NCBI GenBank assembly: GCA_015523565.1
Contig: WAKA01000061.1
Coordinates: 1-34,640, forward strand
Source: Candidatus Heimdallarchaeota archaeon
GTDB lineage: Archaea; Asgardarchaeota; Heimdallarchaeia; Heimdallarchaeales; Kariarchaeaceae
DNA: 34,640 nt
Reading direction: 5' to 3'
The stretch's first letter is position 1. The number at the start of each line of letters is the position of its first letter. Below, piece after piece: positions 10,453 to 31,038 of the stretch. A program made the position numbers and the translations under genes. The notes under the pieces are model-generated. The model saw only the letters and a list, made by a program, of their open reading frames with translations, was not told where the DNA came from and did not search any database.

Positions 10453-11457
10453 ATTACAGCACGTAATAAGAATGCACCCCATAGAAGTAGTTTAGGATAT
10501 AGAAGATCTCGAGCAAGCAGTCACAAACCAAAAGTTCGGGGTTGGCCAGATTATGAAGGAGATCCCAAAATTTTGGCATTTCCAGGATTTAAGGCAGGAA
10601 TGACCAGAATTATTTACAAGGAGGACTCTCCAAAATCTCATGTTGCCAACATCGATAGAATTGCGGCAGTGACTGTAATTGAAACACCTCCAGTCATCCT
10701 TATGGGAATGAGAACCTATAAACAAACACCATATGGGTTGAAGATTTTGGCAGAAGCAAAATTACAAAGCCCATCCAAGCACATTAGACGCATTAAGGTC
10801 AAATTCCCAGATGAGGAGAAGTATAAAGAACAACTGGAGAATGTTGAGAAAACAGCAGACCAAGCCGTGCAGTTGAGAGCGATTGTTCACACCCAACCAG
10901 ATTTGACTGGAATTGGAACAAAGAAGCCCAGCATCTTTGAAATAAGAGTTGGTGCCAAATCAGTTTCTGAAGGAATTAATTGGCTTAAGGAAAAGATGGG
11001 AAAAGAGCTTCAAATTGAGGACTTTACAAAACCAGGACAATATGTCGATGTGATAGGCATTACAAAAGGTAAAGGCTTCCAAGGACCAGTTAAAAGGCAT
11101 GGCATTACCCTGTTACAACACAAATCCAAGCACACAAAAAGAGGAGTTGGATCAATTGCACCATGGACACCAGCAAGAGTCCAATGGGTATTACCTAGAT
11201 ATGGGCAATTAGGGTATTTCAGGAGAACAGAATACAACAAGAGAGTCATGATGGTAGGAACCAATCCAGATGAGATCAATCCGAAAGGGGATTTTGTCAA
11301 ATATGGAAAGGTCAAGAACAGATACGTTGTGTTGAAAGGTTCTGTACCAGGACCGAAAAAACGCATGGTCATGTTAAGAGATGGTATGAGAAATCAAAAC
11401 AAACTTATCAAGGAGCCACGGATCACATACGTATCCCTTGAATCACAAATGAGGTAA
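10453..11457 (+). CDS. rpl3: 50S ribosomal protein uL3, probable ATT start
   Basis: GFKAGMT, TKGKGFQGPVKR, KGSVPGP. The conserved N-terminus (NAPHRSSLGYRRSRA...VRGWP) is in frame upstream of the ORF-track TTG; only ATT 10453 is a plausible start after in-frame stop 10444-46. Confidence 0.93.
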   Translation: MTARNKNAPHRSSLGYRRSRASSHKPKVRGWPDYEGDPKILAFPGFKAGMTRIIYKEDSPKSHVANIDRIAAVTVIETPPVILMGMRTYKQTPYGLKILAEAKLQSPSKHIRRIKVKFPDEEKYKEQLENVEKTADQAVQLRAIVHTQPDLTGIGTKKPSIFEIRVGAKSVSEGINWLKEKMGKELQIEDFTKPGQYVDVIGITKGKGFQGPVKRHGITLLQHKSKHTKRGVGSIAPWTPARVQWVLPRYGQLGYFRRTEYNKRVMMVGTNPDEINPKGDFVKYGKVKNRYVVLKGSVPGPKKRMVMLRDGMRNQNKLIKEPRITYVSLESQMR

Positions 11458-11471
11458 GTTGGAGGTGAAAA

Positions 11472-12248
11472 ATGATGATTAGCGTATTAAATGTAAAGGG
11501 AAACAAAACCAAAAGAAAAATAGAGTTGCCACCTGTGTTCAATACAGATTACCGCCCTGATGTGATCCGACGTGCAGTACTTAGTGAACAAAGTAAGCAA
11601 AAACAACCACAGGGACGTTATCCACTTGCCGGAAGAATTGTTGCGGCATCATCCTTGGGTCCAGGAAGAGGAGCATCCAAGATTCCACGAACACATGGAA
11701 GTGGAACACCTTCTGCTGGAAGAGGGGCATTTGTTCACAGTGCGGTTGGAGGAAAAATGCTCTTTCCACCCACTCCCGAAAAAAAGATTGTAGAAAAGAT
11801 CAATAAAAAAGAGCATAAGCTTGCTTTAAAATCTGCAATTGCGGCAACAAAAGAAAGGAACTTTGTTGAGCAGAGAGGTCATAGAGTCAGTGAAAAAGTC
11901 CAATTCCCCATCATCATAGAGGATAAATTTACAGATGTTCAAAAAACAGCAGAAGTAAAAACTGTCCTTGAAAACCTTGGATTGGGAATGGATCTTGAAA
12001 GATGCAATGTCCGTAAAATCAGGGCAGGAAAAGGAAAAAGAAGAGGGCGAAAATACCGGAAAAAGGTAGGGCCCCTTATTGTCGTTGTTGAAGACTGTCC
12101 ACTTTTGAAGGCAGCAAAGAATATCCCTGGTGTGGAAGTAGTTGAACTTCGACATATGAAGGTTGAAAACTTGGCACCAGGAGGAGATCCAGCAAGGCTG
12201 ACCGTTTGGACAGAAAAGGCCATTGCCCAATTGAAGGATATGGAGTGA
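11472..12248 (+). CDS. rpl4: 50S ribosomal protein uL4
   Basis: RPDVIRRAV, GPGRGASKIPR, RAGKGKRRGR, LAPGGDPARLTVWT; SD GGAGGTGA. Confidence 0.96.
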   Translation: MMISVLNVKGNKTKRKIELPPVFNTDYRPDVIRRAVLSEQSKQKQPQGRYPLAGRIVAASSLGPGRGASKIPRTHGSGTPSAGRGAFVHSAVGGKMLFPPTPEKKIVEKINKKEHKLALKSAIAATKERNFVEQRGHRVSEKVQFPIIIEDKFTDVQKTAEVKTVLENLGLGMDLERCNVRKIRAGKGKRRGRKYRKKVGPLIVVVEDCPLLKAAKNIPGVEVVELRHMKVENLAPGGDPARLTVWTEKAIAQLKDME

Positions 12249-12253
12249 TAGAA

Positions 12254-12514
12254 ATGGAAAACCATGAAATAATAATCAGACCCGTCTTCTCTGAATCAAT
12301 TTTCGACTTGATTTACAAGGAGAACAAGATACTCTTTGAAGTCAACAAGAATGCAAATAAATTCCAGATAAAACGGGCGGTACAAGAATTATACAATGTC
12401 AAGGTTGTAAAGGTGAACACAATGATTACACCACGGGGAACCAAAAAAGCCATAGTTAAATTGGCTAAGGAATACCCTGCTGATGACTTGGCATCTGAGC
12501 TAAATCTATTCTAA
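12254..12514 (+). CDS. rpl23: 50S ribosomal protein uL23
   Basis: IIRPVFSE, ANKFQIKRAV, KVNTMITPRGTKKAIVKL. Confidence 0.95.
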   Translation: MENHEIIIRPVFSESIFDLIYKENKILFEVNKNANKFQIKRAVQELYNVKVVKVNTMITPRGTKKAIVKLAKEYPADDLASELNLF

Positions 12515-12526
12515 TGAGGTGAAAAA

Positions 12527-13270
12527 ATGGGTAAAAAAATTCTTGTTCAAAGGCGTGGCCGTGGTGGACCTGTTTTCAGGGCAGCAGGGCACAAACGAAT
12601 TGAACCAATCAAGTACAGGAAATTCTCTAGGGAAGAATTGTCATCAAAATTCACAGCTAGAGTTGTTTCTCTTCACCATGAACCAGGAAGAGGTGCACCC
12701 CTTGCAAAAATCCTTTTTTATGATGGTCAGTATAAATATGTCCTTCCTGCTGAAGGGCTTGCAGTTGGGGACACCATTGAATATGGAGCAACAGCAGAAA
12801 TTGCCCCAGGAAATGTTCTTCCTTTGAAATTCATGCCAGTCAGAACCCCAATTTTCAACATAGAACTGCGTGCAGGCGATGGAGGAAAATTGGTGAGGTC
12901 TGCTGGAGCAACCGCCACAGTTGATTCAATTACAGATAAATGGGTTTATGTCAAACTCCCCTCAGGGCGCATTAAAAAGTTCCCACCAGAGGCAAGAGCC
13001 ACAGTAGGCGTAGTTGCAGGGGGCGGCATCACTAAGAAACCCTTGATGAAGGCAGGCAATAAATACCATAAACTGAGGGCAAAGGGTCATAAATACCCAA
13101 GAGTAAGAGGCACTGCAATGAACCCAGTGAAACACCCACATGGTGGTGGTGCACACCAGTCCCCACCAAGATCAACCACCGTTTCACGTAATGCCCCACC
13201 AGGCAGAAAAGTGGGTCTTATTGCGGCCAGACGTACAGGTATTAAACGTGGTCGTCAAGCAAAGATGTAA
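12527..13270 (+). CDS. rpl2: 50S ribosomal protein uL2
   Basis: MGKKILVQRRGRG, HEPGRGAP, PRVRGTAMNPVKHPHGGG, GLIAARRTG. Confidence 0.98.
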   Translation: MGKKILVQRRGRGGPVFRAAGHKRIEPIKYRKFSREELSSKFTARVVSLHHEPGRGAPLAKILFYDGQYKYVLPAEGLAVGDTIEYGATAEIAPGNVLPLKFMPVRTPIFNIELRAGDGGKLVRSAGATATVDSITDKWVYVKLPSGRIKKFPPEARATVGVVAGGGITKKPLMKAGNKYHKLRAKGHKYPRVRGTAMNPVKHPHGGGAHQSPPRSTTVSRNAPPGRKVGLIAARRTGIKRGRQAKM

Positions 13271-13272
13271 AA

Positions 13273-14157
13273 TCAATAAAAAACATTTGCAGATTTATCA
13301 AATTTAATTTTTTTTCGAAATTCAGGAAGAATAGGATTATCTTCTAAGTTTAGCCATTTTAAATTGGGAAATAGATCAGTCATGTTAGATGGAAGTTCCG
13401 TCAGTTCATTTCCTGACAAATCAAGCCTCTTTAAGCTAATCAGTTCTTTTCCAATGTTGATTGAGAATATGTTGTTCCCAGAAAGATTTAACTCAGTGAC
13501 AGTTAGAGGTAAATCATTGAAATCAAAGTGAGTAATCCTATTGTCACGAAGATTTAAGGTCTCAATCTCTACACCCTGAAAAAATCCATGAGGGATTTCC
13601 TGAATGCTATTGCTTGAAAGATCCAAAATTTTGAGGTCTAAAGTTGAAATAAGGTTGTGCCTTAATGAAACAAGGGAATTGCGATGGATGTCAAGCACCA
13701 ATAAATTTCGGAGGTGGTTAAAAGTGCCTTCCTCGATATCGTGAATTAGATTCTCATTGAGATAAAGACGTTCAAGATTCCTGTTGTTCCAAAACAGATT
13801 TTTTGGAATGTATTCAAGCCTATTTTTGGAAAGGTCTAATTCACGGAGGTTTGGCATTTTTGAAAAAAAGTTTTCTGGAATGGATTGCAGGTCATTTAAT
13901 GCCAAATGAAGTTTTTCAAGGTAGGGAAGTCTTAATTTGAGGGGTTGTGGAATTTCAACCATTCGCATTTCAGAAAGATAAAGCTCAACTATTCTTGTTT
14001 TACCTTGTATCTTTCTGGTCACTAATTGGTTCCTCGATATGCCTAATTTTTTATGCAATTCCTGGATTTGCGCGGTATCATCCATCATAGAATAAGTCGA
14101 GTACGTCACTAAAAAAGACGATGTTAAATCCAAAATTTCAATAAAATAACGCATCAA
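13273..14157 (-). CDS. Leucine-rich repeat protein
   Basis: About 9-10 LxxLxLxxNxL repeats (e.g. LRELDLSKNRL, LERLYLNENLI, LKWLNLEDNPI); start uncertain. Confidence 0.9.
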   Translation of the reverse strand: MMRYFIEILDLTSSFLVTYSTYSMMDDTAQIQELHKKLGISRNQLVTRKIQGKTRIVELYLSEMRMVEIPQPLKLRLPYLEKLHLALNDLQSIPENFFSKMPNLRELDLSKNRLEYIPKNLFWNNRNLERLYLNENLIHDIEEGTFNHLRNLLVLDIHRNSLVSLRHNLISTLDLKILDLSSNSIQEIPHGFFQGVEIETLNLRDNRITHFDFNDLPLTVTELNLSGNNIFSINIGKELISLKRLDLSGNELTELPSNMTDLFPNLKWLNLEDNPILPEFRKKIKFDKSANVFY

Positions 14158-18011: not shown

Positions 18012-18476
18012 ATGAAGCCATTTAAAAAAGCAGTATTGGGAGGGACTTTTGATAGGCTACACAGTGCACATAAAAAACTTCTGGAAACAGCCGCATGCCT
18101 TGCACAGAATGTGTTCATTGGAATTGTTGGAGATGCACTTGGAAAAAAACTTTTTCCAAAAAAGAAACATAATGAGCTCATCCAACCCTTTAATGTTCGA
18201 AAAGAAAATGTGGAAAGTTTTATGAAAAAATTCAGGTGTAACGTTGAAATCGGTGAGCTTAAAGACCCATGGGGACCTGCACCTTATGATGAAAATGCAG
18301 ATCTGATTGTAGTGTCAGAGGAAACAAAACCTGCTGCAGAAAAGATCAACGAAATGAGAAAGGAAAATAATTTACCACCACTTCATATATATGTCATTGA
18401 ATGGATAATTGACAGGGATGGAAAGCCTATTTCGTCTACAAAGCTTCGGGAGAAAGAGGCTAAATCCTCCTCTTGA
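18012..18476 (+). CDS. coaD: Phosphopantetheine adenylyltransferase (archaeal/eukaryotic type)
   Basis: LGGTFDRLHSAH, DPWGP, IVVSEET, ISSTKLR. Confidence 0.9.
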   Translation: MKPFKKAVLGGTFDRLHSAHKKLLETAACLAQNVFIGIVGDALGKKLFPKKKHNELIQPFNVRKENVESFMKKFRCNVEIGELKDPWGPAPYDENADLIVVSEETKPAAEKINEMRKENNLPPLHIYVIEWIIDRDGKPISSTKLREKEAKSSS

Positions 18477-18939
18477 ATTTAGCCAGCCCGATTGCAATGG
18501 TGCCAATAGAACCAATGTCTCCCACAGGAAGCTGTACAGTTTCCCCCATATCCAAATCCTTTCTTGAAAGACCAGGGTCACTTCCACCAAAGACAATGGC
18601 AACCTTTTTACCCTTTAGACTTTCCACAAACTCTTCATCCAGTTGCTTATCCCCATATGGTGGAGGAGCCACTAGAACCAATGCTTCAGGTGAGAAAAGA
18701 TCAACAATGTCCTGTAGACCATTGAGGAAAAGAAAATTAACACCAGCCCTATACGCAAGTTTTTGTGCATTGGGAATCCCTTTCTGTGCAGCAGATCCCT
18801 GTGCCTGTGAAATGACAATCGTCCGATATCCCAAGCCAATGGCAATCCTGACAAATTCTGTACATCGGTTTGAGGAATTGACATTGTGCATTACAACAAT
18901 TGGCCACTTGTTGTCCATACCCAAAGTGAACTTCGCCAC
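18460..18939 (-). CDS. DUF2122-like SPOUT-fold protein (putative RNA methyltransferase)
   Basis: HNVNSSNR, GSAAQKGIP, knot-like VFGGSDPGLS, IGSIG. Confidence 0.75.
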   Translation of the reverse strand: MAKFTLGMDNKWPIVVMHNVNSSNRCTEFVRIAIGLGYRTIVISQAQGSAAQKGIPNAQKLAYRAGVNFLFLNGLQDIVDLFSPEALVLVAPPPYGDKQLDEEFVESLKGKKVAIVFGGSDPGLSRKDLDMGETVQLPVGDIGSIGTIAIGLAKFKRRI

Positions 18940-19088
18940 TATTTGAAAAATGCCATTGTTTCGCTATTCCTTAACAATCTCTCACTTAATTTTTATTGTT
19001 ACCTAATTTAATTCTTAAATACCACTCTGTTTTAACTAAGTATGTAACATCAACCACGGTTGATATGCGGAGGGTTCTCCTACCAGAA

Positions 19089-19211
19089 AGTTAAGCCCAG
19101 CATCGGACGACCCATGTACTGATTTCCGCGAGGGATCGGGAAAGGCGTCACGCTGTATTACGATTACGGTCATAGAGCCGGTGTGCACCCAGAAACATTC
19201 CGAACCTGGAT
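19089..19211 (+). rRNA. rrf: Circularly permuted 5S rRNA gene (3' half 19089-19157, linker 19158-19164, 5' half 19165-19211)
   Basis: The 3'-half motifs AGTTAAGCCC, TGTACTG, GCGA loop and GGGAAA precede the 5'-half motifs TACGGTCATAG, CACCCAG and 13-nt loop C ending CCGAAC; helices I-V can be paired. Confidence 0.88.
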
Positions 19212-19230
19212 AAGAAAGCAACTGTTGCAT

Positions 19231-19237
19231 CTTTTTT
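19231..19237 (+). terminator. Oligo-T terminator candidate of the 5S precursor
   Basis: CTTTTTT directly after the trailer that pairs with the leader. Confidence 0.45.
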
Positions 19238-19290
19238 CGGTTTATATGAAAATACTTCTAAAATACAAAAACATGTTTTTTTTGATGTCA

Positions 19291-20079
19291 ATGAATAAAT
19301 TTTGGGGGATTGTCTACAGCATGGTCGACAGGTCTGATGTCGTGTTGGAAGTTGTAGACGCAAGATTCCCCTCAATATGCAGAAGTACACGATTAGAAGA
19401 GTACGTCAATTCTATAGAGGATTGCAATCTAGTCATTGGTTTAAATAAAACAGACCTAATTCCAAAATCCCTACTCGATAGGTGGCTGGGTTGGTTTGAA
19501 GAACGAGGCTACGTTGCAACTGGGTTTTCCGCATCCAAACGTTTGGGCACGTCTCGAATTCGGAGGGTGCTACTTCGTGCATCCAAACGAAAGACAGCTG
19601 TTGTAGCTGTTGTAGGGTTCCCAAACACAGGAAAAAGCTCATTGATAAATACACTTAGAGGAAAAGCGGCCGCAGGTGTTGCACCGATTCCAGGCAAAAC
19701 AAGAGGAGAGCAAAAGATAAGGGTAAGCAATAGCCTTTTCATGTTTGACACGCCAGGAATTATCCCAGCCCAATTACCTGAGAAACACAGAATTTTATTG
19801 GGTCTCGACGCCATTACAAAAATCAAGGATCCAGAACATGCCGCCTTAATACTTTATGCACAAGCGGAAGAATTGAATCCAGGTGCAGTTGCAGAACATT
19901 ATGGAATTGAGAATGATGCACAAGATTTTTTGGCAAATCTCGCATATGCAAGAAACAAGATAGTGAAAGGGAATATGCCTGACGAAAGGGCCGCCGCAAT
20001 TATTTTTCTTTCAGATCATATCAGAGGACTTCTTCCAATTTACGAGAACCCTGCAAGACCACTACGCATGAGCCGTTAG
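19291..20079 (+). CDS. RbgA/YlqF-family circularly permuted ribosome-biogenesis GTPase
   Basis: EVVDAR, G4 NKTD, G5 SAS, G1 GFPNTGKS, G2 T, G3 DTPG; start moved to ATG 19291 because the GTG 19183 extension overlaps the 5S gene. Confidence 0.9.
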   Translation: MNKFWGIVYSMVDRSDVVLEVVDARFPSICRSTRLEEYVNSIEDCNLVIGLNKTDLIPKSLLDRWLGWFEERGYVATGFSASKRLGTSRIRRVLLRASKRKTAVVAVVGFPNTGKSSLINTLRGKAAAGVAPIPGKTRGEQKIRVSNSLFMFDTPGIIPAQLPEKHRILLGLDAITKIKDPEHAALILYAQAEELNPGAVAEHYGIENDAQDFLANLAYARNKIVKGNMPDERAAAIIFLSDHIRGLLPIYENPARPLRMSR

Positions 20080-28213: not shown

Positions 28214-28921
28214 ATCAAATAAATCCTAAAAATAATTGTTAACTCTTTCCAAAAACACTAAAAAAAATTATGAAACAAAAAAACAAACATAAACAGCCAA
28301 TCAGAAGAAATTAAGCAAATAAGAATACATTAACATGAATCCAATCTTAAATACCCCAACTCATAAGAAAATCCCTGCAAAAACTTGATTAAAAAAACAT
28401 TTTCAAAAAAATGGAAAAAACTAATGAATATCTTGATTTGGTCATGGATTGGATTGATAATCTGTTCCCATAAAAGCCCCAAGCGGGACTTGAACCCGCG
28501 ACCTGCTGATTACAAGTCAGCCGCTCTGCCAGACTGAGCTATTGAGGCAAATTCTGTGCAATATTGTTTGATGAATTAATTTATTTATATTTAGTGATAG
28601 TTTTCAGGTTATATTTAATTTTGGAGGTTACTAGTTTTAAGACATACTAAATTTATGTAATTGAAATGATCTGTTTTATTCCTTTTGTTGATGCGTTCTC
28701 CAATCGTATTCCATTGTTCCATGGTGTCTGTGTTCCTTATTTAGAGTCTATAAATTAAAATTATTTCAGATAACGGTCATGAATGTAGCGATTATCATAA
28801 TATTTCATTTTTATAATGAATGATTGGTTGTTTTTTGTAGTTACATTTTGGTGATTGTGATACCCATTGATTTTTTGCATTCTTTGGCAAAGTTCTTAAC
28901 TTTTAGGGCATTTTATGGGAT
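28214..28921. other. AT-rich intergenic region at a strand-composition switch (candidate replication origin)
   Basis: + strand is A/C-rich to the left and G/T-rich to the right; flanking genes diverge. Confidence 0.45.
28475..28548 (-). tRNA. tRNA-Thr (UGU)
   Basis: Reverse complement GCCTCAATAGCTCAG...CTGAC TTGTAA TCAG...GGTTCAAGTCC...TTGGGGCT; intronless, no encoded CCA. Confidence 0.96.
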
Positions 28922-30952: not shown

Positions 30953-31038
30953 TGGCAAGGACGGGATTTGAACCCGCGCGTGCGGAAGCACACTGGTTTT
31001 CAAGACCAGCCCCTTGGACCAGGCTTGGGTACCTTGCC
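30953..31038 (-). tRNA. tRNA-Ser (UGA), type II
   Basis: Reverse complement GGCAAGG...CTGGT CT TGA AA ACCAG, variable arm GTGC-TTCC-GCAC, GGTTCAAATCC, CCTTGCC-A. Confidence 0.93.

Follow-up and report, generated by a model that had tools for sequence, protein, structure and literature searches.

Thermofilum pendens has circularly permuted tRNA genes. Such genes are also recorded for Cyanidioschyzon merolae (Soma et al. 2007, as cited in PMC4267664 and PMC10085705). The two halves are swapped and the RNA is joined via a circular intermediate, an arrangement that would be shared by the 5S rRNA genes of Asgard archaea described below. The permuted tRNAs reopen to the standard linear form, whereas in the Asgard 5S a short, stable loop seals what used to be the ends. 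[quoted passage not shown] 2015, PMC4731332). Like the Asgard 5S, this is a universal RNA whose gene was thought to be missing, and which proved to be permuted with a BHB formed by leader and trailer. The circle is restored by an endonuclease and RtcB, the same enzymes that we propose for the Asgard 5S. There are differences too. Permuted SRP RNA is found in a few species, whereas the Asgard gene encodes an rRNA and is found in a whole class and in many lineages of the phylum. Some Asgard lineages would require a predicted second splicing step.

Permuted 5S rRNA has been described in the mitochondria of brown algae (Valach et al. 2014, PMC4267664). Its product is linear, and the three-way junction is where the new ends lie. 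In both cases helix I is a closed hairpin and the gene is missed by the Rfam model RF00001. The algal RNA is organellar with no BHB described, whereas the break in the Asgard RNA lies in the helix III bulge, inside a BHB. With its ends in that position, the Asgard gene falls outside the brown-algal type.

The 16S and 23S rRNA of archaea are circularised via BHB motifs and circular 23S can remain in ribosomes; circular rRNA transcripts have been seen in Asgard archaea too (PMC12918454, PMC7758197). Those genes are normally ordered and closure of the circle takes place beyond the mature core, whereas the Asgard 5S gene is permuted and its core would need splicing. According to a 2026 paper, circularisation is part of the maturation of 16S and 23S but not of 5S (PMC12918454), and circular 5S in Halobacterium and Sulfolobus has variable ends and was read as decay products (PMC12558985). 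In the literature that we searched, outside subscription journals, no permuted 5S gene has been reported from a prokaryote, and the original prediction for this locus likewise knew of none.

The permuted gene and its detection

We analysed a window of 34,640 nucleotides from a Candidatus Heimdallarchaeota archaeon (contig WAKA01000061.1). By comparison with other 5S sequences, 19089-19211 is a circularly permuted 5S rRNA gene, with the back part encoded before the front part. The features of the locus are summarized in Table 1.

Table 1. Features of the 5S locus and of the genes on either side, in window coordinates
Feature	Position	Strand	Basis or remark
DUF2122 (RecB-family nuclease-like) gene, divergent neighbour, synteny marker	18460..18939	-	Pfam E 6.8e-25
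TATA-like box, putative promoter of a stand-alone 5S precursor	19015..19021	+	function inferred
Small hairpin in the 5' leader	19049..19064	+	seen directly
BHB outer helix, 5' strand (of copy 1)	19077..19082	+	6/6 pairs with the copy 1 trailer in the recovered 33-nt spacer
BHB central strand CCAG plus 3-nt bulge AAA	19083..19089	+	pairs with CTGG 19206-19209; predicted cut 19088/19089
Tandem repeat unit collapsed in the assembly	19083..19211	+	unit of 162 bp when the 33-nt spacer is included; 2 or more copies
Canonical 5S back part	19089..19157	+	canonical Asgard 5S model positions 49-113; covariation
Linker capping helix I, joining the usual 3' and 5' ends	19158..19164	+	seen in sequence
Canonical 5S front part	19165..19209	+	canonical Asgard 5S model positions 3-49
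BHB central strand CTGG plus 3-nt bulge ATA	19206..19212	+	predicted cut 19211/19212
BHB outer helix, 3' strand (of copy 2)	19213..19219	+	7/7 pairs with the last letters of the 33-nt spacer
Oligo-T tract, putative archaeal terminator	19232..19237	+	seen directly
YlqF/RbgA-like ribosome biogenesis GTPase gene, directly downstream	19285..20079	+	TIGR03596 E 1.2e-36, under the curated cut-off

The back part starts at 19088-19095 and comprises the end of helix III, loop B, the 3' strand of helix II, helix V, loop E, helix IV with its GCGA loop and the 3' strand of helix I. The front part comprises the 5' strand of helix I, loop A, the 5' strand of helix II, helix III and loop C. All the motifs listed in the original prediction are present at the positions it gave. 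As it proposed, helix I is a hairpin (19152-19157 paired with 19165-19170) closed by a linker of 7 nt, and loop C is 13 nt in length (19193-19205). The UACG tetraloop that it suggested for the linker is possible, but in three same-genus relatives helix I has 7 bp and its loop 5 nt. The two mismatches it reported in helix II are likewise present, but one of these, A19099.C19179, may stem from collapse of a tandem pair in the assembly (see below). The other copy carries a T at 19179, able to pair with A19099, and to judge from the sequences this mismatch is probably a chimera of the two copies.

The gene shares with canonical 5S (RF00001) helices I to V, loops A to E, a loop C ending CCGAAC, the bulged A in helix II and the bulged U in helix IV. 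It differs in that the halves are swapped, helix I is closed and the score is under the Rfam cut-off, and in the predicted 3-nt bulge of helix III in the family to which the window belongs.

A TTAAATA or TTATATA sequence lies approximately 55-70 nt 5' of the BHB in the window and in its three same-genus relatives, and the leader hairpin is retained in two related genomes (G001 and G002) with changes in the loop. A scan for sigma-70 promoters and terminators gave results at chance level; such models are ill-suited to archaea. An open reading frame called from 19183 overlaps the RNA gene and was rejected, 19285 being the more likely start of the GTPase. The GTPase gene is adjacent to or near the 5S gene in same-genus genomes, and the DUF2122 gene adjoins it in three families of the order. 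The gene, for a GTPase of large-subunit biogenesis, lies about 70 bp 3' of the 5S; a functional link is possible, and the arrangement was seen within this genus only. The 5S and 23S genes are on different contigs. Elsewhere in the window, the uL3, uL4 and uL2 genes are followed by a leucine-rich-repeat gene on the opposite strand (10573-14157), and the ribosomal protein cluster appears to end after uL2. Two intronless tRNA genes, tRNA-Thr(TGT) at 28475-28548 and tRNA-Ser(TGA) at 30953-31038 (minus strand), flank the ftsY gene.

It had been predicted that linear covariance models would miss a gene of this kind, and this is what we observe. Rfam finds no 5S in the window at either the gathering score or E<=10, and none in the entire genome assembly; the lack of a collinear RF00001 match above the gathering score is expected for a permuted gene. 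The single sRNA match from the E-value scan of the region was judged to be chance. As a stand-in for RF00001 on the re-ordered sequence, we built an HMM from 22 canonical Asgard 5S genes. The comparison of native and re-ordered sequence that had been proposed came out as expected. The native stretch matches as two swapped pieces, covering model positions 49-113 at 20.8 bits and 3-49 at 9.0 bits, whereas the re-ordered sequence matches as a single piece over positions 3-113 with 35.8 bits (E 5.5e-9) and so carries the conserved 5S motifs over about 120 nt. When the circle is rotated, the best match is obtained with the opening in the helix I loop. The junction pattern had 0 chance matches in 100 shuffles of the window. 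The two HMM pieces are the sole matches in the 3.57-Mb assembly, so that the permuted locus is the only 5S-like locus there, in answer to the question raised at the outset of whether the genome has a canonical 5S. Since the assembly is 90% complete, and a 16S gene is missing from it as well, the lack of a canonical 5S is weak evidence on its own.

Single-sequence folding of the locus was not significant (z about 0) and was not used as support, and the structure therefore rests on comparison. A DNA search found the element in 15 of the 61 genomes searched, with the same order every time. A covariance model of the permuted form has matches in 79 of 83 genomes of the class, including all 14 of high quality. 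RF00001 exceeds its cut-off in only two of the 61 relatives, and neither is a plain canonical gene; one is a partial match on a permuted gene, and the other is a canonical-order gene with an insert, on a foreign-looking contig. In an alignment of 22 sequences in the permuted order 91.9% of cells pair, compared with 31-45% in slid controls. Changes on both sides are found at 26 of 35 pairs, with covariation in helices I to V, so that the five helices and three-armed fold of 5S rRNA are supported. The helix III hairpin pairs in 100% of cells with both-side changes at all four pairs. Helix V pairs at 72%, owing to a register shift in the alignment. Unaided, RNAalifold recovers helices I, II and IV plus the helix III hairpin. 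The conserved order and the covariation support the original proposal that this is a functional permuted 5S gene, including the check on relatives that it had called for.

The bulge-helix-bulge and the tandem pair

Judged from the sequence, the ends of the permuted gene lie within a BHB splice motif, a feature overlooked in the original prediction. Leader and trailer form a 4-bp central helix with a 3-nt bulge on either side at the point of permutation, and the inner helix comprises 3 bp (GTT/AAC), placing the break in the helix III bulge. The 3' part precedes the 5' part in one continuous unit. These are the features of a BHB-spliced permuted RNA, and the motif is broken only in the collapsed assembly. 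Such a flanking BHB would probably turn a permuted linear RNA into a spliced, circular one.

In the window as assembled, the outer stem pairs at just 3 of 6 positions. This failure arises because the assembly has collapsed a tandem pair. Contigs of the source runs X1 and X2 connect 19211 back to 19083 via 33 extra letters, the sequencing depth is elevated across the 5S gene, and four variant letters mark a second copy. The nearest relative has two tandem copies, and the leader in the window is like that of its copy 1 while the trailer is like that of copy 2. With the spacer restored, each copy has a perfect outer helix, of 6 bp in copy 1 and 7 bp in copy 2, and the minimum-energy fold of the precursor of each includes the central helix, the trailer bulge and the outer helix. 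The layout of the 3' strand of the outer helix is also found in G001. Misassembly and partial tandem duplication had both been named at the outset as results that would undo the prediction. The assembly is indeed wrong at this point, but the permuted order is no artefact; the locus is indeed a tandem pair, yet the order is permuted within each unit, and in most relatives a locus has a single permuted match. Two further tandem pairs of permuted 5S genes, each copy with a distinct outer stem, are found at L203 (G077:C510) and L002 (G001:C18), and genomes of family f4 have 4-5 matches.

The central helix covaries in relatives (CAAG/CTTG, CGGG/CCCG, CGAG/CTCG and CGTG/CACG), and does so together with helix III. 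The outer stem sequences vary among lineages, yet pairing is kept within each locus. Requiring at least 3 of 4 pairs in the central helix and at least 5 of 6 in the outer helix, 85 of 93 distinct loci pass, compared with 14% when trailers are swapped between loci and 8% when leaders are shuffled. As the loci are related to one another, these counts do not represent independent events.

Fifty-five loci have a direct BHB. Cutting after the second bulge base and joining would give the canonical 2-nt bulge in 48 of these, via two registers, and a 3-nt bulge in seven, all from the family of the window. In a further 30 loci, from Heimdallarchaeaceae and Atabeyarchaeia, a leader hairpin of about 30 nt separates the outer BHB from the gene. 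Once the first join is made, this hairpin would fall in a second BHB-like motif, with a central helix of 4/4 pairs in 30/30 and an inner stem of at least 4/6 in 20, and its predicted removal gives the canonical junction. Overall, cutting and joining as predicted would restore the usual junction of helix III in three different registers, and this convergence on the correct junction is the strongest sequence evidence that the BHB is used. The calculated energies of the BHB and helix III conformers came out identical, and were not used as support. When metagenome contigs were scanned for the joined form that we predict, there were two matches, neither of them 5S; the collection is not known to hold RNA, and the result is uninformative on joining.

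Permuted and canonical 5S genes in Asgard archaea

The family of the window also takes in Kariarchaeota FT_008 and RS678, so that its organism is probably a Heimdallarchaeon of Kariarchaeaceae type. The complete chromosomes of Ca. Heimdallarchaeum aukensis and Ca. H. endolithica have two permuted 5S copies each. Scanning the genome collection with a pattern yielded 76 loci, almost all of them in genomes named as Asgard or unclassified archaea. Cyanobacterial and acidobacterial pattern matches (L147 and L150) have no model match and are attributed to chance. Loci in a bin labelled Bathyarchaeia (L129) and in one labelled Thorarchaeota (L100) have a Heimdall-type permuted 5S, and are probably from mislabelled bins or foreign contigs; we left both out of the wider spread given their sequences.

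Beyond the class, permuted loci are found in families whose neighbouring proteins, at the loci inspected, are named Lokiarchaeota, Baldrarchaeia, Njordarchaeales or Asgardarchaeia. Atabeyarchaeia have them as well, as do closed genomes of 1.42 and 3.58 Mb, which we take to be Odinarchaeum and Freyarchaeum. Five single-contig Asgard genomes with permuted genes have no RF00001 match over the cut-off and no canonical 5S, and the weak RF00001 matches in them overlap the permuted loci. Canonical 5S is found in Thorarchaeia (26/26 with an RF00001 match), in Borrarchaeum and in four other families; the weak matches that the permuted model gives in families f15, f17 and f20 cover parts of canonical genes. 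In several Asgard classes a DUF1512 gene adjoins permuted and canonical 5S alike. Since both orders adjoin the same gene, the order switched in place; no direction of change is claimed.

A number of other arrangements were observed. A canonical-order 5S (L020:1501-1638, minus strand, G044:C117) has an 18-nt intron of BHB type at the same helix III bulge, and its predicted splicing restores the normal 5S junction. The contig is AT-rich, with rpoH, a split rpoB and two tRNAs with inserts, and looks foreign to its bin. Plagens et al. proposed that permuted genes descend from intron-bearing ones (PMC4731332), and the intron-bearing gene agrees with that route without demonstrating it. In genus g25 of a Lokiarchaeia-type family, f14, the 5S is seemingly permuted in loop C rather than in the helix III bulge (L216, G193:C87:2722-2880), and the permuted model R1 misses this genus. 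Inserts or expansions of about 30 nt are present in permuted genes in loop C, resembling a further BHB intron (L192, G099 and L211, G049), in helix IV (L217, G168) and in the helix I cap (L218, G197). A canonical-order gene of Thorarchaeia (L215, G194:C2:29256-29407) has an insert of similar length right after the loop B motif, possibly an intron or an expansion segment.

Proposed maturation of the RNA and its implications

The genome encodes the enzymes expected for a BHB-spliced RNA. Two genes for splicing endonuclease exceed the PF01974 cut-off, one with the motifs of a catalytic subunit and the other a structural EndA subunit, and RtcB is encoded with E 2e-169. Two-subunit endonucleases tolerate relaxed BHBs (PMC5829648). 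The genome also has candidate intron-bearing tRNAs and encodes uL18.

We consider it highly likely that this is a functional 5S gene matured by BHB cutting and joining into a ring, and infer that its precursor is transcribed, cleaved and ligated. A gene of the tandem pair would be transcribed as a precursor of leader, back part, capped helix I, front part and trailer. Leader and trailer would fold into the BHB, tRNA splicing endonuclease would cleave at both bulges, and RtcB would ligate the ends in the manner of the circularisation of a tRNA intron. The product would be a ring of 123 nt, in which helix III refolds. Refolding would be necessary because the BHB and helix III both use the CTGG strand and so exclude each other. 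The ring would restore the order loop C, helix III, loop B, with a 3-nt bulge in the family of the window. Most 5S RNAs have a bulge of two A nucleotides in helix III, called universal, and the predicted departure from this counts against our explanation. Because helix I bears a stable cap the ring would most likely stay closed, and the sequences incline us to think that the closed ring is the form present in ribosomes, with rather less confidence than in the splicing itself.

Alternatively, the ring might be only an intermediate, with a later cut in the helix I loop yielding a standard linear 5S. This differs only in the end product, and we regard it as a possibility to be taken seriously, if the less probable outcome. 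Permuted tRNAs circularise and are then cleaved to the standard form (PMC10085705), and circular archaeal pre-rRNAs are frequently relinearised (PMC12918454). Yet the helix I cap is 3-4 nt at 76 of 90 loci (a 4-nt loop at 61, of which 47 are UNCG), leaving almost no spacer to excise and suggesting a loop that is kept, and the SRP RNA precedent remains circular (PMC4731332).

It is unlikely that the RNA is cut at the BHB, or trimmed, and left unligated, so that the helix III bulge stays nicked. In brown algae the final product of the mitochondrial 5S gene is permuted (PMC4267664), and the 52-53 bulge is solvent-exposed and tolerant of insertions (PMC7812874). However, the differing BHB registers give exactly the canonical junction length only on ligation, the two-step loci require a first ligation before the second BHB can form, and in the nicked RNA the loop C hairpin would hang on two base pairs.

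There is very little likelihood that the working gene is instead a canonical-order unit spanning the 33-nt spacer, made from the front of copy 1, the spacer as intron and the back of copy 2, with the outer halves as leftovers. The tandem pair would allow this, RF00001 reads over such a spacer in another pair with 31.2 bits, and L020 has a 5S of canonical order that is interrupted at this very site by an intron of BHB type. But both copies retain a perfect outer stem of their own, the ends of the spacer do not pair in the register that a BHB requires, and in most relatives, single-contig genomes among them, the permuted copies stand alone, so that there is no neighbouring copy to pair across to. 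Finally, although the assembly is wrong here and the genome incomplete, an artefact or a pseudogene with a canonical 5S elsewhere is extremely improbable, given that compensatory changes are retained, that a canonical copy is absent from the closed genomes tested, and that the same order in dozens of independent assemblies and in the complete chromosomes CP084166, CP084167, CP147779 and CP147780 refutes an artefactual gene order.

The permuted 5S extends the class of BHB-spliced permuted genes to rRNA, across much of the Asgard phylum. According to Wu et al. (2022, PMC8813620), it was not possible to predict 5S genes for the closed Heimdallarchaeum genomes, a gap that is explained by the two permuted copies in each. 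On balance, we lean narrowly towards the view that the ribosomes of Heimdallarchaeia and most other Asgard lineages carry a covalently closed 5S made by obligatory splicing, in two steps in Heimdallarchaeaceae and Atabeyarchaeia. This would be the first chromosomal rRNA gene in the literature searched whose core must be spliced, and the ring may be the first functional circular 5S. If so, the tRNA splicing machinery would be essential for ribosome assembly.

Heimdallarchaeia are the archaea closest to eukaryotes, and eukaryotes have canonical 5S. The order of the 5S gene provides a discrete character for placing eukaryotes among the Asgard archaea. If our reading is correct, this order would be a rare genomic character, and either eukaryotes, Thorarchaeia and the few other canonical lineages have reverted, or the permutation arose several times.
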